From: a virus
Taxonomy: Duplodnaviria; Heunggongvirae; Uroviricota; Caudoviricetes
Reading direction: 5' to 3' (one strand)
Virus record (IMG/VR): IMGVR_UViG_2558860288_000010
DNA length: 52,982 nucleotides
Both the position numbers and the translations under genes were made by a program. Positions 1 through 51,614 of this stretch are shown one piece after another; position 1 is the stretch's first letter, and every line of letters begins with the position of its first letter. The notes beneath the pieces were generated by a model. That model saw only the letters and a program-made list of their open reading frames with translations. It made no database searches and was not told the DNA's origin.

Positions 1-996
1 TTAAGCAGGGCTATTTTCAGCATTAGCTCTAACCACAGCTACCTCAACTGTGTCTTTCGCTATACTGTTGTAATAACTTTCTGTAAGCTCAGAAATAAGG
101 AAGTCATCCATCAATAATTTTATAAATAAATCCTTTGACACTTTCGTATCAAGAAGAATTTGAGTCCCATCTTCGGTAAATCTTATTTTACCTTTAAGCA
201 TAGGGTAGTTCTTACAGAAAATTATAATTTTGGCCGTTTCGATACCCCGCTGAATTACTGGAGAGGCTCTTGCAACTTTTGTTAATTTTCTTGCATATCT
301 TACATCTTGGATAAGCTCCGCTAATGCTTCAATATTTGAAACTATATTACGAGCCTCTATTGCAGCCATCCCAGACGTGGCCTCGCGAATAATCACTTCA
401 TGAAAACCAAATGATTTTTCTATAGTATCCAAATCAAATACAAATAACCCATCAGAGAATCTTAGCAATTGAAAGTTATCACTAATCCTAAAAAAATCAT
501 CATCAATCTTCTCGAATCTGGTTCTTGATTTTTTTAGAAAGAAATTTCTTCTTGAGAAAATATTAACGGGGGCCATGGTTTTATATAAAACCATTTGCTC
601 TCTCGCATCACCAATCTCAATAAGTAAGACCTTAATATTATTCACACCCTCTGTGGCAATATTATATAACTCATGATCATCAGTCTGTCTTACCTCATCG
701 AGAACTCTCAACTCCTCAGGTATTTCAAGATCATATTGATAGATGACCTTCACTCTCTCGTCTGATGCCGAAAGTTGTAATATTGACAATTCTTCATTTG
801 ATACAACATTGTCTCGGATATTGTCCATAAAAAGACTAATGAGCCCGCGTTGAGCATCTGGATCAATATCCATTTTTTTGGGGGTATTTGAATTTCTCGT
901 GAGTGCGTAGACAACTATTCCTAGCTGTGCTTGATTATCGATAAAATATTGAAACTTACGATCCAATGTTTCTTTATCATATATAATATCTGGCAT
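1..996 (-). CDS. Hypothetical 331-aa soluble protein, downstream partner of a membrane protein; candidate KwaB-like defense component
   Basis: Complete ORF with ATG start and AAGGG RBS 7 nt upstream. AT-rich. Sits 10 nt after the membrane-protein gene on the same strand; size and pairing fit the Kiwa architecture. No sequence-level confirmation possible here. Confidence 0.4.
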   Translation of the reverse strand: MPDIIYDKETLDRKFQYFIDNQAQLGIVVYALTRNSNTPKKMDIDPDAQRGLISLFMDNIRDNVVSNEELSILQLSASDERVKVIYQYDLEIPEELRVLDEVRQTDDHELYNIATEGVNNIKVLLIEIGDAREQMVLYKTMAPVNIFSRRNFFLKKSRTRFEKIDDDFFRISDNFQLLRFSDGLFVFDLDTIEKSFGFHEVIIREATSGMAAIEARNIVSNIEALAELIQDVRYARKLTKVARASPVIQRGIETAKIIIFCKNYPMLKGKIRFTEDGTQILLDTKVSKDLFIKLLMDDFLISELTESYYNSIAKDTVEVAVVRANAENSPA

Positions 997-1005
997 AGAA
1001 AACCC

Positions 1006-1650
1006 TTAATATCCTGAGTAGTAAACTCTATCATCAAGTTTTATATATTTTACTGAGTCGCCCATTTTAATTTTCTTCCTTGTTATAACTATAATCCCAT
1101 CTCTTTTTTCCCCTCCTTTGAAAACACCATCAAGTTTATAGATATGAAACCCCATCAACGCTAATGAAGGATTAGCATAAAAAAGATCTGTTTTAATATA
1201 AATAATCCCCATAACAACCAGCAACATAGCTAGAACAATTATGTATTTTGTTTTTTCGAAATCAAATGTTATTAATGGAATTACATAGGTTGCAAGAAAC
1301 GTTAAATGTTCATAATTTATACCTTCAACCTTCACAACTTCAAAAGGAATCTCGGTTGATTGTTTGATATCATATTTAAACTTAAAATACGCAACAATAC
1401 TATATAAAAAGAGGAGTGCACAAATAATAGCCACGACATTATTAGATATTAACTTTTCAAAACCTATAAACTTACATTTATCACCAAAACAGATTGGAAT
1501 ATCTATGGTGATAACTATAAAAAAGAAAAAAAGGAGTGATAATGAAAGAATATATAAATTAATCTTTCTGAAAATCATGCCTCCGCCACTATTCCTCATA
1601 TTGATTACTCCCATCATGAAACTATTACGATCATAACTGATATACTTCAT
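1006..1650 (-). CDS. Multi-pass membrane protein (214 aa), candidate KwaA-like
   Basis: ATG start. Translation has several long hydrophobic stretches (LYILSLSLLFFFFIVITI, VVAIICALLFLYSIVAYF, IIVLAMLLVVMGIIYI). AT-rich. Operon partner of 1..996. Confidence 0.4.
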   Translation of the reverse strand: MKYISYDRNSFMMGVINMRNSGGGMIFRKINLYILSLSLLFFFFIVITIDIPICFGDKCKFIGFEKLISNNVVAIICALLFLYSIVAYFKFKYDIKQSTEIPFEVVKVEGINYEHLTFLATYVIPLITFDFEKTKYIIVLAMLLVVMGIIYIKTDLFYANPSLALMGFHIYKLDGVFKGGEKRDGIIVITRKKIKMGDSVKYIKLDDRVYYSGY

Positions 1651-2174
1651 GTTTTAAATGCCACAAAGTAACACTATCCTACTCATAAAAATGCCATACC
1701 CAACAGATTTTATAGTAATTATACAATATTTAATAAGTTTTACTAAGCTACTGTTTTTATCTAAAAGATATCTCCTCTCAACTCCTAATGATAGACATAA
1801 AATATTCTCTCTATGACAGAAACAGCACTACACCGCACCCGCCTGCGGTTTTCATATCACTGAAGTTTTTCAGTTGGGATTTTTTACAAACGATACTTCC
1901 AGCCCGCGCCAGTGCTGGGGATGTACTGCGAGACAGGAACTGAAAAGAATGAAAGGAAATTCAGTTTTTTTCAGTTTTGCTATCCACCGATTCTGTTGCC
2001 AGAATACGCAACTCTTTGATGTTAAATGGATAATTAATTTTAGGTGTGATTTTTTATGAAGGATTGTGAAACAATAAAAACATAACACATTGAAATATAA
2101 TTATTTTATCTCTGTAGAAACTGAAATCCTATGACCAGACTCCGGGAACGGATCAACCATCCCCGGCGCACACT

Positions 2175-2447
2175 CTACCCGTTCTTTTGCGCAGCCAGCA
2201 GCAATTCTAAAGCCTTTTCCCGCCCCTCTGGTGGAATTGCATCAATCAGCTCTTTAACCCTTCCCTGCCCGTTCAGCGCGCTTGGGCTGACCGAATGGGA
2301 GAAAGCAACATTCATCACAAACGAGTGACCACACTCCACGTTAGAGCAATAGCAGTACACATCGTACAGCTGAGGGTGTTTTCTGTTTGTTTTACCGATC
2401 CGCGCGACTGCCTTACATGTTGGGCAGTACATTTTCATCATCTTCAT
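2175..2447 (-). CDS. Ogr/Delta-family zinc-finger late-gene activator (about 90 aa)
   Basis: Translation MKMMKMYCPTCKAVARIGKTNRK...YCYCSNVECGHSF has the C-x2-C...C-x4-C spacing of Ogr/Delta proteins. Start refined to the ATG at 2447 with an AAGGA RBS; the track ORF begins further upstream. Confidence 0.7.
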   Translation of the reverse strand: MKMMKMYCPTCKAVARIGKTNRKHPQLYDVYCYCSNVECGHSFVMNVAFSHSVSPSALNGQGRVKELIDAIPPEGREKALELLLAAQKNG

Positions 2448-2509
2448 CGTTTTATCCTTTTGCCCGCCAGAAAAAGGGATTCTGGTTCCCTGCCTCTTGT
2501 TCTGAACGT

Positions 2510-2697
2510 GTAACACTGGTAACACGCGTAACATCGTTGATTTAAATGAATTTAATCCGTTACCAGTTAACTAAATTAAGAGGTAACGCGTGGTAACACA
2601 CCGTTTTTTGTTACCACTGTTACCAGTACATATTTTTGACTGGTAACAGTGAAGAACCGCATCAGTAGCGGGTGTTACCTCTGTTACCAGTGTTACC
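2510..2697. repeat. Array of about 12 GGTAAC(A)/(T)GTTACC repeats in both orientations; candidate replication cis site (ori/crr-like)
   Basis: Counted directly: copies at 2510, 2518, 2528, 2559, 2582, 2592, 2610, 2619, 2642, 2674, 2683 and 2692, in the non-coding gap between the primase stop and the ogr stop. Confidence 0.6.
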
Positions 2698-2723
2698 TCA
2701 TAAAAATAAGACTCGCGCGATAA

Positions 2724-5411
2724 TTACTCGGGATCGGCGCTTCCCAGTACCTGCGTATTGAACTGATACACTCGCTTAACCCCTATTTCTGGCAGGCGTA
2801 TGCTGTTTTGTGTCCGCCCGTCCTCACCGGCTTTCAGCCAGCCCGCATCCACACACAACCTGGCCACCTTACGTGAATCAAATCCTTTACAGATTTCCTT
2901 CCAGCCGGACGGCAGCACATAAAACGTCACCACCGGTTCTGTGGTGTTGTCGCCTTTGTCCACCTTCCTGAACCCCATCATTGAAAGCGGCCGGTTTCTG
3001 TCATCGTACCAGTCTGCAAAACGGCTGAACTGGTTTCGCGTCATGAAGTCGCGTACCTGTTCAAGCGCGGTTTTGTCTTCCTGATTGGCCGCATGACCAC
3101 GATCGGCCATCCACGACGCCAGGCAGCATTCAGCCGCCCGGAATGCCTCACCTTCCGGCCAGCCGGTGATCCCGGCCTGAGTGGCCAGCTCCCCGGCCAT
3201 CGCCACCAGAGCAAAACGGGTAACCACACGGCCAACCTGATTCCCGGCATTTTCTGGTGTCAGTCTGCGGGTATATTCTTTCAGCAGGGTTTTCGCCTGG
3301 CGGGTCAGCTCAGGCAGATCCCCGGTCAGACAGTACAGCCAGTCGCGGAAAGGCGTGCCGTGATAATGCACCACCGACTGTTCCAGATGTTCTGCCAGGG
3401 TCTTCCCGCCACTGAAGCCGTGCAGCTCCTCAAACACTCCATATTTACCGGAATCGCTGGGGATCTGGATCATCCTGACCTCCACCCCGGCATAGGTTCG
3501 TTCACCGGCGTTGGCCGCATGTTCCACCAGTGACAGCTCTCCGGTGGACAGAAACAGCAGATTCCAGCGGTTGGTTTCTCTCACAGAACCATCCGTTCTG
3601 GCTCTGGCTTTCCCCTGCCCGTTCGCCAGCATATAGGCAATGTTTCCCGCCTCCCTTCCGTCAACCTCCCGGATCTCATCGAGCATCAGGGTCGCATCAT
3701 TGCGACGGCTCGCCGTTCCTTCCAGCGCATTGCCGGTAGCCCGCCACGTGTGCCAGAAGTCCGTACCACCGCAGACCGATGCGGCCACTTTCATGGTCGT
3801 GGTTTTACCGTCCGTCGATTCCCCTTTCAGGTGATAGCCGCCGCCACTCACGCCAACCAGCGTCAGCAGCGGTGCAGCAAAGGCCAGACTCACCGCAAAC
3901 GCCAGGCGGGCATTGCTGACACAATAACGCCCGATATTTTCCCGCCACTCGTCAGAAGTACCGCTGACGCGAAAATCCCGCCCCTGTACACTCGACGTCT
4001 GCAAAATAACCGACTGGGCTTCACGGCCAATCACTTCGTCCTGCAGGACATACACGCCGCCATGCCAGCCGGTTTTATTCACACAAGTGACTTTTCTGTC
4101 TGGTTTACACAGGGACAGGTATTCCATCAGGAAAGCTCTGGCCATCCCGTTGATGTTGATATAAGAAAGACCATTAACCAGTAACACGCGGCGCAGCTCT
4201 TCCCCGCTGCCGCCCAGCATTTCCATCGGCATAGCCCACTTGCGGCTGTTACCGTTTGTGTCCTCCCACTCCAGCAGACGCCCATAATTACTGCCGTCTG
4301 CATCACAGGTGATCGCAGTCACCCGCAGCGGACTGCAAATCTTGATATTGCGGATTTCCGTATCGCCATCAGACTTGTTAACCAGTTTGTCATACCACAG
4401 GTATTCCTTGGTCAGCCTGAATCCCTGCGGCAGCCGGGTCTGCCCTTTACCGTGTAGCGTCATTTCCTCGCGGAAGGCTTCACGCGCCCGATCTTTACCC
4501 ACCTCCTGCCGGTAATCATCCCAGTCCGCCTTATGGCGTACCGGGGGAAGTGTCACCCAGCCATCCACCGCTTTAGCGGCTTTCTCAGCCTGAATACGTC
4601 CGGTATTTTCCTTCCCGTCAGCCAGATCATTATCTCCGGCCAGAATGATCCGGGTCTCCGGCCAGCGCTTTCGTACTTGCTCCGTCACTTTCAGCAAATT
4701 GGTGGCCGCAACAGCCGCCACGATCCACCCTTCAGCCAGAAGGCTGACGGTCAGCGCCGTGGCATAGCCCTCCGTGATGATCACCTGTTCAGGTGTTTCA
4801 GCGGGTATATCGTTAAGGGCAATGAATGCGCCGGACAGCTGGCTGCCGGGTAGCAGGCTTTTATCACCGTCAGGGTTGATAAGCTGGCCACCGGTAATAG
4901 TCCCGGCAATATCCGTCAGTGGTAGCAGCAGCGAACCGGCAGAAAATGTCATCCCGGCCAGATTCAGAGATTGCGCCAGCAGGGGGAGTGAATACCCGTG
5001 TAAGCCCTTATTTGTCAGATAGATCGGCTCACCGTTCCGGCACTGCTGTCTGAGTCGGGTATACCGCTGCGCGCCCGTTTCTTTTCCTGCCGCCTTTTTC
5101 CTGGCGGGCAAAGCGGGTTTCTCCAGCATTTCAGGTAATGCAAGCACCTCAGATACCACATCTGCGGCTTCCTTTACCTTTCTCCCGGTCACCAGACGAA
5201 CCAGATCCAGACCATCACCATGACCGCACTGATTACAAAACCAGGTACCCCGTCCCTCTTTATCGTCGAGACGAAAGCGATCTTTGCCGCCACAGGCCGG
5301 GCAGGCTCCATGACGCCCCGCTGGCGGCACTTTGATACCTAAAGCAGACAGAATATGTGGCCAGTGCCCGACAGCAGCACCTGAAACCGCAGACACAGGT
5401 TGATTCCTCAC
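2724..5411 (-). CDS. P4 alpha-like bifunctional primase/helicase (895 aa)
   Basis: N-terminal zinc-binding motif CPACGG...FCNQCGHGDGLDLV, a central TOPRIM-like region and a C-terminal NTPase region. GTG start overlapping the stop of the upstream gene. Confidence 0.8.
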   Translation of the reverse strand: MRNQPVSAVSGAAVGHWPHILSALGIKVPPAGRHGACPACGGKDRFRLDDKEGRGTWFCNQCGHGDGLDLVRLVTGRKVKEAADVVSEVLALPEMLEKPALPARKKAAGKETGAQRYTRLRQQCRNGEPIYLTNKGLHGYSLPLLAQSLNLAGMTFSAGSLLLPLTDIAGTITGGQLINPDGDKSLLPGSQLSGAFIALNDIPAETPEQVIITEGYATALTVSLLAEGWIVAAVAATNLLKVTEQVRKRWPETRIILAGDNDLADGKENTGRIQAEKAAKAVDGWVTLPPVRHKADWDDYRQEVGKDRAREAFREEMTLHGKGQTRLPQGFRLTKEYLWYDKLVNKSDGDTEIRNIKICSPLRVTAITCDADGSNYGRLLEWEDTNGNSRKWAMPMEMLGGSGEELRRVLLVNGLSYININGMARAFLMEYLSLCKPDRKVTCVNKTGWHGGVYVLQDEVIGREAQSVILQTSSVQGRDFRVSGTSDEWRENIGRYCVSNARLAFAVSLAFAAPLLTLVGVSGGGYHLKGESTDGKTTTMKVAASVCGGTDFWHTWRATGNALEGTASRRNDATLMLDEIREVDGREAGNIAYMLANGQGKARARTDGSVRETNRWNLLFLSTGELSLVEHAANAGERTYAGVEVRMIQIPSDSGKYGVFEELHGFSGGKTLAEHLEQSVVHYHGTPFRDWLYCLTGDLPELTRQAKTLLKEYTRRLTPENAGNQVGRVVTRFALVAMAGELATQAGITGWPEGEAFRAAECCLASWMADRGHAANQEDKTALEQVRDFMTRNQFSRFADWYDDRNRPLSMMGFRKVDKGDNTTEPVVTFYVLPSGWKEICKGFDSRKVARLCVDAGWLKAGEDGRTQNSIRLPEIGVKRVYQFNTQVLGSADPE

Positions 5412-5818
5412 AGCAGTCCCCCCTGGTCTTCCGGTTTCACAAACTCAAAATCTTCAGGGAGATCTCCATCAGGGGCACCAAAAATAATATCCCGGTAAAT
5501 CTCCCGCATCTCTGTGACACCAAAAACTGACAGGTGAATATTTTCTGACATGAAGCCAGGTTTAAGCATTTTTTCCAGTTGTTCCCCGGCCAGCATGCAA
5601 CCAACTTCGGCACCAAATTCAGTCACCCACGGCATTTCAATATGATAAATAATATTGCTCACGACTTTTTCGTGGGTGAGTTCTATTCGTTCGCCATCTT
5701 CAATATAAACCGGTTCATTATGAACACGCTCCATTAAGGAAATGAATGCATCAGCAATGTAGTACCGTAAGACTGCTGTTCGTAAAGCATGCGCCTTTAA
5801 ATTTTGATTATTATTCAT
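5408..5818 (-). CDS. Hypothetical protein (about 136 aa), translationally coupled to the primase
   Basis: Track ORF 5408..5878 begins at TTG. An internal ATG at 5818 (MNNNQNLKAH...) is preceded by an AGGGAGAG RBS. Stop overlaps the primase start. Confidence 0.45.
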   Translation of the reverse strand: MNNNQNLKAHALRTAVLRYYIADAFISLMERVHNEPVYIEDGERIELTHEKVVSNIIYHIEMPWVTEFGAEVGCMLAGEQLEKMLKPGFMSENIHLSVFGVTEMREIYRDIIFGAPDGDLPEDFEFVKPEDQGGLL

Positions 5819-6047
5819 CGCGCATCTCTCCCTTAATTGTGCTGGTTTCCTTAACAACGCCATCCAGTTGTTCGGCAATACAGGCCACTAAAGCCGCAGC
5901 GCCTTCCGCTGAAACAGTTCTCGCTCCATTCACTGTGGGAACGGACAGGACCTCTGCAAGAAACTCACTGGCCAGTGCCGCCCGTAACAGACGACTCTCA
6001 CCCAGTTCGCTCAATATGCAGCCTTGCTTAAAATTCATGGATTTCAT
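5811..6047 (-). CDS. Hypothetical small protein (78 aa)
   Basis: ATG start with a strong GGGAGGTG RBS. Overlaps the neighbouring genes by a few nt at both ends. Confidence 0.45.
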   Translation of the reverse strand: MKSMNFKQGCILSELGESRLLRAALASEFLAEVLSVPTVNGARTVSAEGAAALVACIAEQLDGVVKETSTIKGEMRDE

Positions 6048-6247
6048 GCAATCACCTCCCCGGCACTTTTCACAGGGATACGGGCAGCAAAGCTCAGGAT
6101 AAATTCAGTGGCAAGTTTAAGGCGTGCAGCATGCTCGCAGTCTGCGATTACACGCACAGGACGTGGACGGGCATCACGGTCTGTACGGCGAACAGCCAGA
6201 AAGACAAAGGTAAATTCAGGGTGAGATAAAGCAGGGACTGTAGCCAT
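6044..6247 (-). CDS. Hypothetical small protein (67 aa) downstream of the structured RNA region
   Basis: ATG at 6245..6247; translation MATVPALSHPEFTFVFLAVRRTDRD.... It is the 3' part of the 196-aa track ORF 6044..6634, whose 5' part has no protein-like composition. Confidence 0.3.
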   Translation of the reverse strand: MATVPALSHPEFTFVFLAVRRTDRDARPRPVRVIADCEHAARLKLATEFILSFAARIPVKSAGEVIA

Positions 6248-6249
6248 AA

Positions 6250-6560
6250 TGGCAACCTCCGTTAGATAGCGGGTAACGCTACCACCGGAGTTCCTACGCT
6301 CATGGGTGGTAGCCCAGACGGGGGTAGGAATACCGGCTCTAACGGATACCGGCCAGCCCGAAAGCTGCCCCGCCTGGACTACCATAATTCTGATGATGTG
6401 GCGTAAAAAATAAAAACATGCAGTCAGCCACCACACCATAAATTTTAGGTGAGTCAAAGCTACGACACAAAAAAACACGCCTGGCGCGTGTTGTGTCGCC
6501 GTTAGATTACACGGGTTCCTACGCCCGGCTGCCGATTTTGCGGCAACCTTTAAACTATAT
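6250..6560 (-). ncRNA. Candidate C4/CI-type antisense RNA locus (satellite copy)
   Basis: Non-coding gap upstream of the small-gene/primase operon. Two hairpin-containing segments each carry ttcctacgc (6291..6299, 6517..6525), with a partly complementary gtaggaa segment between them (6324..6330), plus an 18-nt block tgccgattttgcggcaac (6530..6547) identical to 38449..38466. Strand inferred from the flanking genes. Confidence 0.35.
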
Positions 6561-6721
6561 CCCGCGCATTCCTGGTGAGGCAAGAAATTTATAACCGAAA
6601 ACTGAACATTGCCTGGATTAATTAACGCTGGCATGCTTAAGCCTCTGCTTAAAAATAGTTCTTCATTTTTCCTGATGCTGTAAACGAGACCCGCCTCTGA
6701 GCGGGTCTTTCTGTCGCGAAG

Positions 6722-7726
6722 TCAATCAGCAAACGTCAGGGCGCTCTCATCAACAGCCGCGTACAGTTCAGGTTCACCGAGTGCATAGCCTTCATTGCGC
6801 AGGTAGGAATGTACGTATTCACTGTTTTCATCATCAAACTCAGCACGAAACCACCGTGTTATCGCCTGAGTGTAAATATGCAGATTATCCAGCGTCGTTA
6901 CTGCCAGACGCTTACCCGGCATAAACGGGGGAATAAACGCAAAGCGGCCAGCAACAGAACTTGTAGCCATCTGTGCAGCATTCACATCAGCCGGGCGGTC
7001 TGCGGCATTAAATAACTTCAGGCGTTGATGTGCTGCCAGCTCTGCCCCAACCAGTACAACCAGACGAGGATCTTCACGAAACTGCTCAGCAATAAGCTCA
7101 GTAATCAGATGGTTGGCCAGAGCATCTATATTTTTCCAGGTGCCAGTCTCTCCCAGCATGACTGGCTCAGAGATGATTTGCTTTCCGTTCCCGTAGGCTT
7201 TCGCCAGTGCATGCCAGCCAATATTGACATCCTCGCCTTTTTTATTAATTTCCGGGTTTGTAGTATTTGCAATCGACACACCATTGAAACCGACCCGCAG
7301 CATGTCAAGCGCATATGCCTGGGCAAAAAAGCCCTCAACCGTTTTCTCAAACTCATCCGGCACGCCGGTATGGTAAATATGAGACATATCGGAATAGCTG
7401 ATCCGGGCGCAGGTATCCGTCTCGGTCAGAAAGAACTCCGTACCATTGATTGCCATTTTTTTGTGGAAACGGCCACCATCCACACGTCCGGTATGCAGTT
7501 CACTGGCACCAATATTGACGGCATTACCTGACACGGCGTTAACATCACGTAGGGTGATATTTTTAATAAGCCACCCGGATTCCAGAATTGAGGTACGCAG
7601 TATATTTTCAGTGGGTTCGCTTAATGCAAAGCGTCTGTTTGATTCTTCCTGATAGTTAGTGCCAGTGACGAATTTATTATGATAACGACGTGCTGCGTCC
7701 GGCCTTTCAGTTTTGAAGGCATACAT
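6722..7726 (-). CDS. P2 GpN-like major capsid protein homolog (334 aa)
   Basis: ATG with AAAGGTGA RBS. Motifs GFNGV, GW, EDPRLVVLVG and LDNLHIY match what I recall of P2-family capsid proteins. Needs an HMM or BLAST check. Confidence 0.45.
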   Translation of the reverse strand: MYAFKTERPDAARRYHNKFVTGTNYQEESNRRFALSEPTENILRTSILESGWLIKNITLRDVNAVSGNAVNIGASELHTGRVDGGRFHKKMAINGTEFFLTETDTCARISYSDMSHIYHTGVPDEFEKTVEGFFAQAYALDMLRVGFNGVSIANTTNPEINKKGEDVNIGWHALAKAYGNGKQIISEPVMLGETGTWKNIDALANHLITELIAEQFREDPRLVVLVGAELAAHQRLKLFNAADRPADVNAAQMATSSVAGRFAFIPPFMPGKRLAVTTLDNLHIYTQAITRWFRAEFDDENSEYVHSYLRNEGYALGEPELYAAVDESALTFAD

Positions 7727-7748
7727 AGCTTTTCACCTTTTTAAGTAT

Positions 7749-8621
7749 TTAAGAAAAGATTTTATTTTTGTACTCAGTAACCCGATTGTATTTCATTACA
7801 TGCTCAACATAATCCCGGTCACTTACGACTGAACGTAATACATTATTATCTGCTCGATAGTACTCCCTGTAAGCCATAGCTCTTGCCATTCCACCGTTAT
7901 TTAATACATAACGATCAGTTGGAACGCTACAACGGCTAATAATTTCACTCACAGAATCAGACAAAGATTTGAGTGCATCTGTAATAAATTTAATATCACG
8001 GACAACGTCACCGTCATTAAACACAGAAATAAAATCAGCAGGGATCTGGCCGGATTGAGGAAATATGTTCAGTAAACGCTTCTCAACTCCCTTACCAATG
8101 TAGTTAACTTCATCGGCCAGTACGCCCGGTAAAAGCTTGATTGTGCTCAGTCGGCTATGTTGCTCATTCAGCCGGGAAACGGCCAGATGGTAACACCGTT
8201 CAGCATCCGCTCGTTCAGCATGCCCCGTTTTATTCGTTTTGGCTTCAGCAATGCTACTGACGCCGTTTTTTGAGAATGTGCTTTTCCATGCAACTTCCGC
8301 ATTTGTCACTTCACGCTGCCGAAAAGATAACTCTTCCTCTTCCTGACGACACAACTGGGCATAACGGCTCAGGAGCAGGTTGATCTCATTCGCCACAGCT
8401 TCCGTATCAGGTACTGTTAACCCCGTAAGTGAATACAACTTTTCACCTTTAGCGCGCAGCTTATTCAGTGAATATATTTCAATAATACGCACAATACAGG
8501 CCGTGTCGCTATGAGTCTCTTTAAACGGGCTTACTTTATAGCTTCCTAACACGGAAACATATTCATTCTTAATTGGAAGGGATATGTATTGACTCCCCGC
8601 CGGTTGTAGACGGTAATTCAT
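7749..8621 (-). CDS. Hypothetical 290-aa protein immediately upstream of the capsid-like gene; possible scaffold
   Basis: ATG with GAGGAG RBS. Assignment rests only on gene order (scaffold-then-capsid as in P2 O-N); no sequence similarity recognised. Confidence 0.3.
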   Translation of the reverse strand: MNYRLQPAGSQYISLPIKNEYVSVLGSYKVSPFKETHSDTACIVRIIEIYSLNKLRAKGEKLYSLTGLTVPDTEAVANEINLLLSRYAQLCRQEEEELSFRQREVTNAEVAWKSTFSKNGVSSIAEAKTNKTGHAERADAERCYHLAVSRLNEQHSRLSTIKLLPGVLADEVNYIGKGVEKRLLNIFPQSGQIPADFISVFNDGDVVRDIKFITDALKSLSDSVSEIISRCSVPTDRYVLNNGGMARAMAYREYYRADNNVLRSVVSDRDYVEHVMKYNRVTEYKNKIFS

Positions 8622-8657
8622 ATAAACTCCTCATAAATGCCACTAATACTAATGTTT

Positions 8658-8858
8658 TTACTCTGAAGAATGACTATCACGCCAAGCATAGTAGTCACCG
8701 GCACGCCATCGAGACATACGACCTAATTTGATTGGTTTAGGAAAACGACCTAGAGAAATCAGTTTATAAATCCATTTATCAGTAAACAGACAATCAGATG
8801 TAATGAATTTCATATCAATGAGCGAGTCAGCAGAAGGACGATTATCAGTAAACCCCAT
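8658..8858 (-). CDS. alpA: AlpA-family transcriptional regulator / excisionase-like protein (66 aa)
   Basis: Translation ...KWIYKLISLGRFPKPIKLGRMSRWRAGDYYAW matches the AlpA signature (GRFPKP.KLG). ATG at 8858 with GAGAGGAA RBS; the track ORF begins at TTG. Confidence 0.75.
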   Translation of the reverse strand: MGFTDNRPSADSLIDMKFITSDCLFTDKWIYKLISLGRFPKPIKLGRMSRWRAGDYYAWRDSHSSE

Positions 8859-8965
8859 AATGAGTTCCTCTCTATGTATCAATCTATATCAACGAAGAGG
8901 ATTAAAACATCGTTCAAAAATATAAAAAAGGCGAGTAAGCAAAAAATACTTACCCACCAATAATG

Positions 8966-9763
8966 TTAATTATTTGTAAAAATTGGTTTTTTGAAAATAC
9001 TAGCAATCATTTTGCAGATTACTTCGAATGATAAGGGCGGTTCTTTCTTATCAGGCCAAAATTCGGCTGCTCGGGAAAAAACAAGCTTTGTTAGCGCTGT
9101 AGCATTGTCTTTTTTGACATTAGAGTTTTCTTTGTAAAGATAAATGGCCACACTCAAAACTTGATTTCGCTTTATTGCATGTCGCTCTTGTTGTGCAATT
9201 GATAGCGACTTATATACCTCCGAAGAAGAAACATCATTATTAATAATATTATACAGTTTTCGAACATCATCGCTTTCTATATAGCCATCATGCTCAAAAA
9301 AAAGCCCATCAGAATTTTTCCAGTCTATCTGAAAGAACTTTATCTCTTCTGAAAACACTTCCCCTGCTGGAACAAGAAGAGATGGGTATACTGGGAATTG
9401 CCCACTAAAATAAATAAAATCCTTCTGGATTCCTGGTGGGTATTTAAAATAACCTTTTATACGTAAAATAACTAAATTCTTGTCATTTTTTATCTCATGT
9501 ATTTTTATGAGACTATATTGACTAATATAACTATACCCCTCGTCATCCTTATCCAATGAATCAAGATGATTAATAAATTCATTTATACATCTAACTCGAT
9601 GCTTTGAGAAATTACCCTCCCTGCCAACAGATGCAGAGAATGAAAGTTCATTCTCTCCTGCCAGATAAAAAACATCCGCCTCTTCGCAATTTAGCATCTT
9701 AGCAACTTCTGCTACTTGATAATGCGTGCGAAATAGTTTCAAAGGAATGGTTTTATTAGCCAT
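8966..9763 (-). CDS. Hypothetical AT-rich 265-aa protein, translationally coupled to the integrase
   Basis: ATG at 9761..9763 overlaps the integrase stop by 8 nt. Markedly AT-rich compared with the integrase and primase. No recognisable motif. Confidence 0.5.
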   Translation of the reverse strand: MANKTIPLKLFRTHYQVAEVAKMLNCEEADVFYLAGENELSFSASVGREGNFSKHRVRCINEFINHLDSLDKDDEGYSYISQYSLIKIHEIKNDKNLVILRIKGYFKYPPGIQKDFIYFSGQFPVYPSLLVPAGEVFSEEIKFFQIDWKNSDGLFFEHDGYIESDDVRKLYNIINNDVSSSEVYKSLSIAQQERHAIKRNQVLSVAIYLYKENSNVKKDNATALTKLVFSRAAEFWPDKKEPPLSFEVICKMIASIFKKPIFTNN

Positions 9764-10943
9764 TACGATTCATTCCCTCAATAAAATCAGCATACCATTG
9801 CATCATTTCTCTGCGTCCTTCCAGATATTGAGCATGGTTATAAATTCCGCGAATAGAATTTTTATCTAAATGAGCAAGCTGGGTTTCAATCCATGCACTG
9901 TTAAATCCTTTCTCATGCAGAATTGTACTCATCGTATGCCTGAAACCATGCCCCGTAACACGCCCTGCATATCCAATACGTTTAAACACCTGATTAATGC
10001 TTGCTTCACTCATAAATTTGCTAGGATCGTTGCGTCCAGGGAACATCAGCGGGTAGTTCCCAGTTAGTTCTTTCAAACATTTGAGATGGGATAATGCTTG
10101 TTTTGGCAACGGGACAATATGGCTCCTACGCATTTTCATACGTTCTTTTGGGATCTCCCACACCGCATTATCAAAATCCACCTCACGCCACTCACCTGCT
10201 CTTAGTTCTCCTGTTCTTAGACCCGTCAGGATAAGTAAATGTGCCCCCAGCAATACAATTGGGCTTCCTGAATAAGCGTTAAGGGCAGTAAAGAACTCCG
10301 GCAGCTCGTTGGCTTTGAGGAATGGATAGTGGACTGCTTCATGTCCTTGCATCGCACTGGCAAGATCCGGTGCAGGATTGTAGATTGCTCTACCCGTTAC
10401 GATGGCATAGCGGAAAACTTCACCGCATCGCTGACGGACTTTCTTCGCTTTCTCCATAGCACCTCGTGCTTCTATCAACCTCAGTACTTCAAGTAGTTCA
10501 AGGGGCTGAATATCGGCTATAGGTCTGTGTCCAATATGCGGGAAAATGTCTTTCTCAAACGCCTCAATTATGTCTGAAGCATAGCCCTCAGACCATTTGG
10601 GAGATTTCATTTTGTGCCACTCTAACGCCACTTCTCTAAATGGGTTAAGTGTCTCGATCGCTGCGTTTAAAGCATGCTTCTTTGCTTTTTTCACTTCGCC
10701 AGGATCTTCACCAGCGACGAGTAGTTTCTTTGCGTCTTCGCGTTTTTGTCTGGCATCGGCGAGGGTGACTGTTGGATAGACACCAAAGGACAAGCGCTTC
10801 TCTTTACCAGCAAAACGGTACTTCATACGCCAGTAACGCGAGCCATTAGGTTCAACCTGAAGGTACAGGCCACCTCCATCAGATAGCTTATAGCTCTTCT
10901 CTTTTCCTTTAGCGGCTTCAACCTTGCGGGCATTCAGCATCAT
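9756..10943 (-). CDS. int: P4-type tyrosine integrase
   Basis: N-terminal arm-binding-like region (KSYKLSDGGGLYLQVEPNGSRYWRMKYRF) and C-terminal catalytic region with HGFRHT and a Tyr near the C-terminus. Likely ATG-ATG start at 10943; the track start at 11012 is TTG. Sits 165 bp from the tRNA-derived repeat. Confidence 0.85.
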   Translation of the reverse strand: MMLNARKVEAAKGKEKSYKLSDGGGLYLQVEPNGSRYWRMKYRFAGKEKRLSFGVYPTVTLADARQKREDAKKLLVAGEDPGEVKKAKKHALNAAIETLNPFREVALEWHKMKSPKWSEGYASDIIEAFEKDIFPHIGHRPIADIQPLELLEVLRLIEARGAMEKAKKVRQRCGEVFRYAIVTGRAIYNPAPDLASAMQGHEAVHYPFLKANELPEFFTALNAYSGSPIVLLGAHLLILTGLRTGELRAGEWREVDFDNAVWEIPKERMKMRRSHIVPLPKQALSHLKCLKELTGNYPLMFPGRNDPSKFMSEASINQVFKRIGYAGRVTGHGFRHTMSTILHEKGFNSAWIETQLAHLDKNSIRGIYNHAQYLEGRREMMQWYADFIEGMNRNG

Positions 10944-11107
10944 TGGGGGCACATTTCCTAGACCGAACAGAACATGCCCCCGATTGTGCCCCCAATTGTA
11001 TGTTGATTTCAAGAGATAGGGGTTGACGTCAAATGACGAAGAATCGCGTAATAACTATGTTTTTAAAGGGTTTTGTTGATTTGAGATGACTTGGAAATAC
11101 TAAGGGA

Positions 11108-11153
11108 TGGTGCCGATAATAGGAGTCGAACCTACGACCTTCGCATTACGAAT
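11108..11153. repeat. 46-bp exact duplicate of the tRNA-Thr 3' end (att site between the two elements)
   Basis: tggtgccgataataggagtcgaacctacgaccttcgcattacgaat is identical to 51539..51584. Confidence 0.85.
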
Positions 11154-11594
11154 CTGTAGCACCAATCATAACTATCTGTTTTAGCAAGCATTAACCGCAT
11201 TCACTAAGCTATAGTTGATGGCACAAACAGAAAGTTGATGCATGATGTTGTCATGTGTATGTCACAAATACGGCACAACGATCTTCAAACATGTAGCCAC
11301 ACATCCACAGAAGAGCGCAAAGCCTTGCAATCCAGTACAAAGCTTTGTGTGTCTCATTTTTGTCTCACCTTTTATTACGCAAAAAAAGATAAGCCTGAAA
11401 CCAAACGGCGCCATAGGCATGTTAACGGGAGAATTACCTACCAGGAACTTACAAACCGTTTAAATGATGTGGAAGTATTAACATGTAAAATCGGTAACGG
11501 CTGGAAATCATTCAATACTCGCACTATCAAAAGTTCACCAGCCAGCCGCAGCACGTTCTTGCATACGACGTGGCTGCGGCATATCACAAAACGA

Positions 11595-50071: not shown

Positions 50072-50487
50072 GGCCTGCCAGCTTCTCAAGATATCCAGAC
50101 CTACAGCAATCATGTCAATCCAATAAATGGAGACTCCAAGTGGAAGAAGAAATCTTCACTCGTGAAGAGGCTGCGTCGTATCTGAAGGTAGACAAAGGCA
50201 CTATCACGCAGTGGATACGAAGTGGACGACTTCAAGCCGCAAAGATAAATCCAGATAAACCTAAAAGCCCATATCGCATTTGCAAATCAGACTGCATTGC
50301 GGCGCTTAAGTCTGTGAGACACAATAGCGCGGTGAATGCGGTTGATGTGCAGGAGGTTAAAGCATGTCAATCAAACTGCGCGGTGGCACATGGCACTGCG
50401 ATTTCGTCGCGCCAGATGGATCAAGAGTTAGACGCTCTCTTGAAACATCGGACAAGAGGCAAGCGCAAGAACTTCACGATCGTCTGA
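50068..50487 (+). CDS. xis: Excisionase-like HTH protein (putative Xis)
   Basis: Central segment REEAASYLKVDKGTITQWIRSGRLQAAKI is a typical excisionase-type HTH. Start uncertain (ATG 50068 or GTG 50140); the 3' end overlaps int by 124 nt. Confidence 0.45.
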   Translation: MRPASFSRYPDLQQSCQSNKWRLQVEEEIFTREEAASYLKVDKGTITQWIRSGRLQAAKINPDKPKSPYRICKSDCIAALKSVRHNSAVNAVDVQEVKACQSNCAVAHGTAISSRQMDQELDALLKHRTRGKRKNFTIV

Positions 50488-51524
50488 AAGCAGAAGCGTG
50501 GAGAGTAAAAAATCTCGGTGAATCACCGAAAAAGCTATTCAAGGAAGCCTGCATACGGTGGCTGCGAGAGAAAGCGGATAAGAAGTCCATTGATGATGAC
50601 AAGAGCATTATATCGTTCTGGATGTTGCACTTCAGAGAAACCATTCTCTCTGACATAACAACAGAAAAAATAATGGAGGCGGTAGACGGGATGGAAAACC
50701 GCCGCCATCGCCTGAACTGGGAGATGAGCCGGGATAGGTGTTTGCGGCTTGGCAAGCCAGTGCCGGAGTATAAACCAAAGCTGGCAAGCAAAGGAACGAA
50801 GACGCGGCATCTGGCAATACTTCGCGCTATTCTCAATATGGCTGTTGAATGGGGATGGCTTGACAGGGCGCCCAAAATATCAACACCACGCGTTAAGAAT
50901 GGACGAATCAGATGGCTTACAGAGGAGGAATCGAAGCGCCTGTTTGCAGAAATTGCTCCTCATTTCTTCCCTGTGGTCATGTTTGCAATCACGACAGGCC
51001 TTCGTCGTTCCAACGTTACAGACCTTGAGTGGTCACAGGTCGATCTGGATAAGAAAATGGCATGGATGCACCCTGATGAAACAAAAGCTGGCAATGCGAT
51101 CGGAGTTCCTCTTAACGAAACCGCATGCCAGATATTAAGAAAACAGCAGGGGCTCCATAAGAGATGGGTATTTGTCCACACCAAACCTGCCTACCGAAGC
51201 GACGGAACAAAAACAGCAGCGGTAAGGAAGATGAGAACCGACAGCAACAAGGCATGGAAGGGAGCGTTAAAGCGGGCAGGCATTAGCAACTTCCGCTTCC
51301 ATGACCTGAGGCATACCTGGGCAAGCTGGCTGGTTCAGTCCGGTGTCTCTCTTCTTGCACTTAAAGAGATGGGAGGATGGGAAACTCTCGAAATGGTTCA
51401 AAGATACGCCCACCTTTCAGCTGGGCATCTCACCGAGCACGCGAGCAAAATCGATGCGATTATAAGTCGCAATGGCACAAATACGGCACAAGAGGAGAAC
51501 GTAGTTTACTTAAATGCGAGGTAA
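50364..51524 (+). CDS. int: Tyrosine integrase (lambda-type)
   Basis: ATG with AGGAGG RBS; catalytic HDLRHTWAS and Tyr in VQRYAHL; ends 15 bp from the tRNA 3' end. Confidence 0.85.
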   Translation: MSIKLRGGTWHCDFVAPDGSRVRRSLETSDKRQAQELHDRLKAEAWRVKNLGESPKKLFKEACIRWLREKADKKSIDDDKSIISFWMLHFRETILSDITTEKIMEAVDGMENRRHRLNWEMSRDRCLRLGKPVPEYKPKLASKGTKTRHLAILRAILNMAVEWGWLDRAPKISTPRVKNGRIRWLTEEESKRLFAEIAPHFFPVVMFAITTGLRRSNVTDLEWSQVDLDKKMAWMHPDETKAGNAIGVPLNETACQILRKQQGLHKRWVFVHTKPAYRSDGTKTAAVRKMRTDSNKAWKGALKRAGISNFRFHDLRHTWASWLVQSGVSLLALKEMGGWETLEMVQRYAHLSAGHLTEHASKIDAIISRNGTNTAQEENVVYLNAR

Positions 51525-51538
51525 CTTATTGATTTAGA

Positions 51539-51614
51539 TGGTGCCGATAATAGGAGTCGAACCTACGACCTTCGCATTACGAATGCGCTGCTCTACCAAC
51601 TGAGCTATATCGGC
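51539..51614 (-). tRNA. thrW: tRNA-Thr (thrW-type), integration target
   Basis: Reverse complement reads GCCGATATAGCTCAGTTGGTAGAGCAGCGCATTCGTAATGCGAAGGTCGTAGGTTCGACTCCTATTATCGGCACCA (76 nt); its 3' 46 nt are duplicated at 11108..11153. Confidence 0.9.

Follow-up and report, generated by a model that had tools for sequence, protein, structure and literature searches.

Kiwa, a two-gene defence system, was reportedly defined by Doron in 2018. The experimentally studied systems include those of O55:H7 RM12579, ECOR8, ECOR12 and ECOR49 (PMC11785009; PDB entries 9mrg, 9mrr, 9mrx and 9o0i), in which both kwaA and kwaB are required, and Kiwa has been reported in 1,713 Escherichia coli genomes (PMC11785009). 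It is already among the cargo of hotspots in P4-like satellites (PMC9122126; PMC11754643), and canonical P4-like satellites are known to have a psu-int hotspot adjacent to the cohesive-end site (cos) (PMC9122126; PMC8628076; PMC13586616). Here we analysed the IMG/VR virus record IMGVR_UViG_2558860288_000010, a stretch of 52,982 nucleotides (nt) hereafter referred to as the window, which opens with a minus-strand gene pair that a preliminary description had likened to Kiwa from its architecture. Judging by profile matches and by sequence matches to solved chains, this locus is almost certainly Kiwa. It very probably represents an intact two-gene Kiwa operon that serves as exchangeable cargo of a cos-adjacent defence hotspot, carried by a P4-like satellite at tRNA-Thr in E. 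coli (Table 1).

We compared the two proteins with profile libraries and with the sequences of solved structures. The 331-amino-acid (aa) protein matched the Pfam family PF16162 (KwaB, DUF4868 family; E = 1.2e-40, aa 119-305), the PADLOC model PDLC00233 (E = 1.5e-125, aa 7-320 of 331) and the NCBIfam equivalog NF041623 (346.8 bits, cut-off 200), while its transmembrane (TM) partner matched the PADLOC model PDLC00219 (E = 2.4e-83, aa 26-212) and the NCBIfam equivalog NF041622 (233.7 bits, cut-off 100). The preliminary description had proposed a profile search for DUF4868/KwaB in the first protein and for KwaA in the second, and both searches came out positive. The solved Kiwa chains of 9mrg, 9mrx and 9o0i were also matched: KwaA aligned with 9mrg_A over 184 aa without a gap (41% identity, E = 2.1e-42), and KwaB aligned with 9o0i_H and 9mrx_K over aa 11-317 (307 aa, 28% identity, E ~1e-31). 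The DNA of window positions 1-2600 is 100% identical in the RefSeq chromosomes of E. coli NCTC9100 (L001) and BCE049 (L002), where the identical kwaB product is named 'anti-phage protein KwaB' (WP_023568589.1) and the kwaA product is WP_023568590.1. Pfam, PADLOC, NCBIfam, PDB and RefSeq all agree with what had been read from architecture.

The locus shares its gene order and gene sizes with the studied systems of O55:H7 RM12579, ECOR8, ECOR12 and ECOR49. The KwaA alignment spans the four TM helices of solved KwaA plus its C-terminal domain, and the KwaB alignment spans both domains. This allele and O55:H7 Kiwa have in common the best PADLOC sub-models (PDLC00219 and PDLC00233), the C-terminal motif of DUF4868 and the equivalents of R167 and R233; a placement of the allele in another sub-model than solved Kiwa was rejected, as the solved O55:H7 proteins also score best on PDLC00233 and PDLC00219. 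KwaB would be Kiwa's effector, a soluble protein that starts with a Rossmann-like region and ends with the DUF4868/KwaB domain, which binds DNA; its solubility is predicted because the protein has no hydrophobic segment (Kyte-Doolittle maximum 0.86). The 214-aa protein has three 19-aa segments with a mean Kyte-Doolittle value >2.3 (~aa 31-55, 70-90 and 134-155) and a weaker fourth (~aa 114-130), and its gapless 184-aa alignment to a solved four-TM KwaA suggests a membrane sensor of the same topology, in which four TM helices are followed by a C-terminal domain in the cytoplasm (a beta-barrel in known Kiwa). The earlier account of a 214-aa multi-TM protein beside a 331-aa soluble protein therefore holds for the open reading frames (ORFs) and agrees with their hydropathy, but the length of 214 aa does not stand, since that ORF is probably over-extended.

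An alignment of KwaA N-termini revealed that 24 of 24 homologues begin at a Met equivalent to Met25 (ATG 1578-1576). The kwaA frame of the closest relative, from Budvicia diplopodorum D9, is moreover closed upstream of this position. We therefore take the shorter frame as the likely gene, with KwaA probably starting at Met25 and comprising 190 aa. The RefSeq model WP_023568590.1 (214 aa, to 1650) looks 24 codons too long on this alignment, which ruled out its Met1 as the start and left Met18 (ATG at 1599) as the less likely choice beside Met25. The spacing between the Shine-Dalgarno (SD) sequence and the ATG at Met25 is only 1 nt. The pair is tightly coupled, AT-rich and on the minus strand, as had been described, but the gap of 10 nt given earlier has to be corrected to 9 nt, as the kwaA stop lies at 1008-1006 and the kwaB ATG at 996-994. 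This short spacer implies co-transcription or coupled translation. The guanine-cytosine (GC) content is 0.28 in kwaA, 0.35 in kwaB and 0.32 across the cassette (1-1812), compared with 0.48 in the remaining satellite, and the base composition of the cassette is foreign.

Relatives of KwaB were sought in one genome per species, which yielded 25 loci. The best match was that of B. diplopodorum D9 (87% aa identity), and the remaining loci, mostly from diverse gamma- and beta-proteobacteria with a few further lineages, showed 50-58% identity. A KwaA homologue lay directly upstream on the same strand in all 24 loci with upstream DNA, with 9-75 nt between the aligned ends. Against the Budvicia pair, the ratio of nonsynonymous to synonymous substitution rates (dN/dS) was ~0.05 for kwaB and ~0.06 for kwaA with dS >1, which indicates strong purifying selection on kwaAB; together with the full-length family matches, these values from an 87%-identical orthologous pair argue that both genes are real. 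KwaB R170 and R236, which correspond to the DNA-contact residues R167 and R233 of solved KwaB, are invariant in the 25 homologues, and the C-terminal motif FIKLLMDDFL.SELT...AKD is invariant in the subfamily and common to solved KwaB.

The Budvicia locus (NZ_WOYF01000018.1) is the closest orthologue found. Its proteins are 87% (KwaB) and 86% (KwaA) identical to those of the window, the DNA of the entire cassette is 82% identical, and its KwaA likewise starts so as to give 190 aa. Residence of this copy in the same satellite was considered and rejected, with no satellite protein match within 6 kb and housekeeping genes as neighbours. The Budvicia cassette becomes homologous again from window position 1625, and upstream of its kwaA we found a decayed cos-like remnant together with the cargo-side leader (L011 5110-5235), 71% identical to window positions 1748-1875. 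This remnant suggests that the Budvicia cassette was once captured along with a cos junction.

We then examined the leader of the cassette for control signals. A sigma-70 promoter scan of 1-2700 returned 7 sites against 9.4 expected and was uninformative, the promoter-like hexamers at 1658-1630 matched at chance level, and a search of the kwaA leader for an Ogr/Delta-type late-promoter dyad (TGT-N12-ACA) found none. The cassette presumably has a promoter of its own. An Rfam scan of 1-11200 detected no RNA family in or beside the Kiwa cassette; its only matches, C4 and isrK, lie deeper in the satellite.

Between the ogr gene and kwaA lies an intergenic region that resembles the genome ends of ESSI-2-type peduoviruses. 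The record of Cronobacter phage ESSI-2 (Peduoviridae, Seongnamvirus) repeats 15 nt, GCGGGTGCGGTGTAG, at both ends, and the joined ends read GGCGGGTGCGGTGTAGTGC, which is the minus strand of window positions 1843-1825. The sister satellites L003-L005, L036 and L037 carry the exact core as well, and so does an ESSI2-like E. coli prophage (L038). These matches point to ESSI-2-type phages, rather than P2 itself, as the helpers. The satellite core is presumably unlike the cos sequence of P2 and P4. OR850886.1 (L007, 'Salmonella phage S.Kent 1-2-1'), an unannotated and unverified record of 7841 nt, shows 75% identity to the cos-flanking region and may be a packaged satellite genome.

Similarity between the sister satellites and the window ends ~10-12 nt past the cos core, and four different cargos start within ~12 nt of that core across sister elements. 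The low-GC Kiwa cassette likewise starts ~12 nt past the core and, in the identical RefSeq copies, runs to the tRNA-Thr att repeat ~160 nt beyond kwaB. In the same slot, sister satellites hold sce7725/sce7726 family proteins (common, e.g., in ST131-type strains), a PARIS-like pair of an AAA ATPase and a DUF4435 protein, or a reverse transcriptase with a SLATT protein, and on these grounds we regard the slot as a defence hotspot. The expectation that P4-like satellites carry defence cargo was borne out for this element. In sister satellites at argW, the integrase adjoins the cargo because the phage attachment site (attP) is on its far side; in the present satellite attP separates int from the cargo, and Kiwa therefore sits at the end of the prophage opposite the integrase. 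Once the element is circular, the cargo is always between int and the cos/delta side. The slot corresponds to the psu-int hotspot known from canonical P4-like satellites, and the Kiwa described there (PMC9122126; Domainator cluster 11, PMC11754643) likewise forms exchangeable cargo directly beside cos, is flanked in the circular form by the integrase and the late-activator (delta) module, and has sister elements with other defence systems in the same position. Unlike canonical P4-like carriers, this satellite lacks any detectable Psu or Sid, and it has a P2-family capsid homologue and an ESSI-2-type cos. Surveys anchored on psu (PMC9122126; PMC11754643) would presumably miss its hotspot.

The carrier is a P4-like satellite of ~11.3 kb (~-176 to 11124 in window coordinates), and Kiwa fills the entire stretch between cos and the attachment site (att). 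The P4-like core set is present, namely an integrase, a primase, Ogr/Delta, an Ash/Icd-like protein (Phage_ASH), a C4-type RNA and an AlpA-like helix-turn-helix match that, at 20.3 bits, does not reach Pfam's gathering cut-off of 21. The Ogr/Delta gene is the last conserved satellite gene ahead of cos and the cargo, in agreement with the earlier statement that the pair lies beyond it. No satellite ORF matched Psu in Pfam or PHROGs, and Sid was not detected in the satellite, although no public Sid profile exists and its absence is therefore unproven. The capsid homologue, which the two unmatched 290-aa and 265-aa proteins adjoin, could represent an alternative capsid-redirection strategy. Of 5426 complete E. 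coli genomes, ~450 contain a related satellite, which in most cases occupies tRNA-Arg (argW).

The att core duplicates the tRNA-Thr 3' end and has two exact matches in the window, where none is expected. A third copy lies outside the window, which starts exactly at the kwaB stop codon, 160-177 nt past that stop in both identical RefSeq copies; it was seen at L001 13824-13841, where NCTC9100 and BCE049 diverge. This places the pair at the distal end of the satellite, as had been proposed. The NCTC9100 copy of the satellite has a ~2 kb internal deletion in the primase gene (L001 16724-17759). The BCE049 copy is intact, but different chromosomal genes flank it at each end, vat/IS1 at one and glaH-lhgO-gabD at the other, which implies that the element was the site of a rearrangement. 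The second, tandem prophage is bounded by the same 18-nt att core and has its own integrase (50364-51524) and head and tail genes ~80% identical to those of Citrobacter phage Chris1. As a helper this neighbour was rejected: it is a Chris1-like lambdoid myovirus rather than P2-like and does not share the satellite cos, and a search for the satellite cos/intergenic sequence within it gave only chance 11-13-mers.

Table 1 Coordinates of the Kiwa cassette, its satellite and the adjoining prophage in the window
Feature	Position	Strand	Details
kwaB	1-996	minus	331 aa; TAA stop at window bases 3-1; from ORF list
kwaA-kwaB spacer, GGGTTTTCT	997-1005	minus	9 nt; read directly off the sequence
kwaA, likely gene	1006-1578	minus	190 aa from Met25; from homologue alignment and Budvicia ORF
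KwaA ORF as read, full-length	1006-1650	minus	214 aa; from ORF list
AT-rich leader, presumed cassette promoter	1579-1812	minus	cargo side of hotspot; not conserved in sister satellites with other cargo
cos core, GGCGGGTGCGGTGTAGTGC	1825-1843	minus	19 nt; conserved flank to ~1980; cargo boundary
Ogr/Delta-like zinc-finger late activator	2175-2447	minus	PF04606, E = 1.3e-13; phrog_603; RefSeq WP_023568591.1
Zn-ribbon/Toprim/DUF927 primase	2724-5411
C4 antisense RNA	6302-6389		Rfam, 81 bits
isrK	6470-6547		Rfam, 71.8 bits
P2-family major capsid homologue	6722-7726		PF05125, E = 1e-66
290-aa protein	7749-8621		no match in Pfam, PHROGs or NCBIfam
265-aa protein	8966-9763		no match in Pfam, PHROGs or NCBIfam
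Integrase	9756-10943
att core, ATGGTGCCGATAATAGGA	11107-11124	plus	18 nt; integrase end of satellite
Second prophage	11125-51555		40.4 kb; tandem between satellite and tRNA-Thr (51539-51614)
att core, second copy	51538-51555		inside tRNA-Thr

By analogy with the studied systems (PMC11785009), this allele probably works as published. KwaA tetramers in the inner membrane would bind KwaB dimers to form a fence-like, membrane-associated supercomplex, which would be activated when KwaA senses membrane distortion where a phage attaches and ejects its DNA or where conjugation takes place. KwaB would then bind the entering DNA through DUF4868 without cutting it and stall replication forks, so that late transcription and virion production are blocked and the cell survives. 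DNA mimics of the lambda Gam type would be expected to inhibit KwaB. In this way the cassette would shield the lysogen from phages other than the helper, and with it the satellite.

Several observations weigh against this interpretation. The mechanism for this variant is drawn from homology, and identity to the solved system is only 28% for KwaB and 41% for KwaA. Only two of the six predicted DNA-contact residues of O55:H7 KwaB (R142, R167, K187, R233, N134 and D169) are kept, the other four positions differing or sitting in gaps of the 28%-identity alignment. Among the interface residues that mutation showed to be needed in ECOR49/O55:H7 (KwaA K75/N77 and Y181/F183; KwaB R21/R35/Y157 and P100/N101/Q103; PMC11785009), KwaA keeps only K75 (K96) and Y181 (Y202), and KwaB keeps none. 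Counting all interface residues mutated or highlighted in that work, KwaA keeps 2 of 9 and KwaB 0 of 7, in loops whose alignment is unreliable at 28% identity. No convincing promoter for the cassette was found in the scan of 1-2700. The allele is also rare, occurring in 2 of 5426 complete E. coli genomes (21 more have Kiwa detectable at 60-80% DNA identity). Most interface residues and four of six DNA-contact residues set this allele apart from O55:H7 Kiwa. We read the unkept interface residues as subgroup divergence and not as evidence against Kiwa membership; they characterise one subgroup rather than define the family, the loop alignment is unreliable at this identity, and interface residues co-vary. 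The phage specificity of this allele probably differs from that of the studied systems, given that the five tested Kiwa systems all differed (PMC11785009).

The same residues bear on the possibility that this is a genuine but diverged Kiwa that acts otherwise than in the published model, for example with the KwaA tetramer as a channel causing depolarisation or abortive infection, or with a main role in limiting conjugation or the superinfection of the cell by rival satellites and helper phages rather than lytic phages. We consider this unlikely. The mostly unkept interface and DNA-contact residues would fit such a variant, as would the hourglass, TMEM16A-like shape of KwaA, the varied phage specificity of the five tested systems and the anti-conjugation activity of Kiwa (PMC11785009), and Rousset et al. 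(PMC9122126) argue that satellite cargo is tuned to competition between elements. However, the tested systems showed no abortive infection (PMC11785009), the subfamily shows no variation in the core motifs of DUF4868 or in two arginines that contact DNA, and the PADLOC sub-models hit by the allele are those hit by the studied system.

Less probable still is that the cassette merely hitch-hikes as silent or non-functional cargo and is by now a remnant, either not expressed or not protective any more. Promoter sites no more frequent than chance, the 1-nt SD-to-ATG spacing at Met25, the rarity of the allele and the decaying, primase-deleted satellite copy of NCTC9100 could all be taken in this sense, but both ORFs are unbroken and match the family models along their full length, dN/dS is ~0.05 over dS >1, and three independent strains, among them the one with the primase deletion, have a 100% identical cassette. 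The notion of a different or new membrane-associated two-gene system of like architecture, which the preliminary description had left standing, was an a priori possibility to which the lack of a Pfam family for KwaA adds little, and it is effectively eliminated by matches far past threshold, for KwaB in four independent profile libraries and the PDB and for KwaA in PADLOC, NCBIfam and the PDB.

The identification of the locus as Kiwa is correct and already known, since the system has been characterised in structure and mechanism, the proteins are named KwaA and KwaB in RefSeq, and Kiwa in P4-like satellite hotspots has been published. A defence system called from architecture only proved correct here, which makes the case a clean positive control. 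Our analysis adds a corrected kwaA start (190 aa rather than 214), a cargo boundary placed to the base pair beside a cos core that matches the ESSI-2 genome ends, and the finding that a Psu-less, capsid-gene-bearing lineage has the same kind of hotspot (Kiwa, PARIS-like, reverse transcriptase plus SLATT, and sce7725/7726). The diverged Kiwa allele could be used for testing which interface and DNA-contact residues matter. The only less-explored aspects are those of the carrier lineage, with no detectable Psu, its own capsid homologue and an ESSI-2-type cos. Tentatively, and with rather more doubt than confidence, these observations might be read jointly: a Psu- and Sid-less, capsid-bearing carrier lineage with an ESSI-2-type cos would hold a hotspot missed by psu-anchored surveys, its Kiwa, with a diverged KwaA-KwaB interface, may have a phage range of its own that spares the helper, and the Budvicia remnant would be a moved 'cos + Kiwa' module. 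If true, the decayed Budvicia cos remnant would document the movement of this whole module from a satellite or phage to a chromosome.

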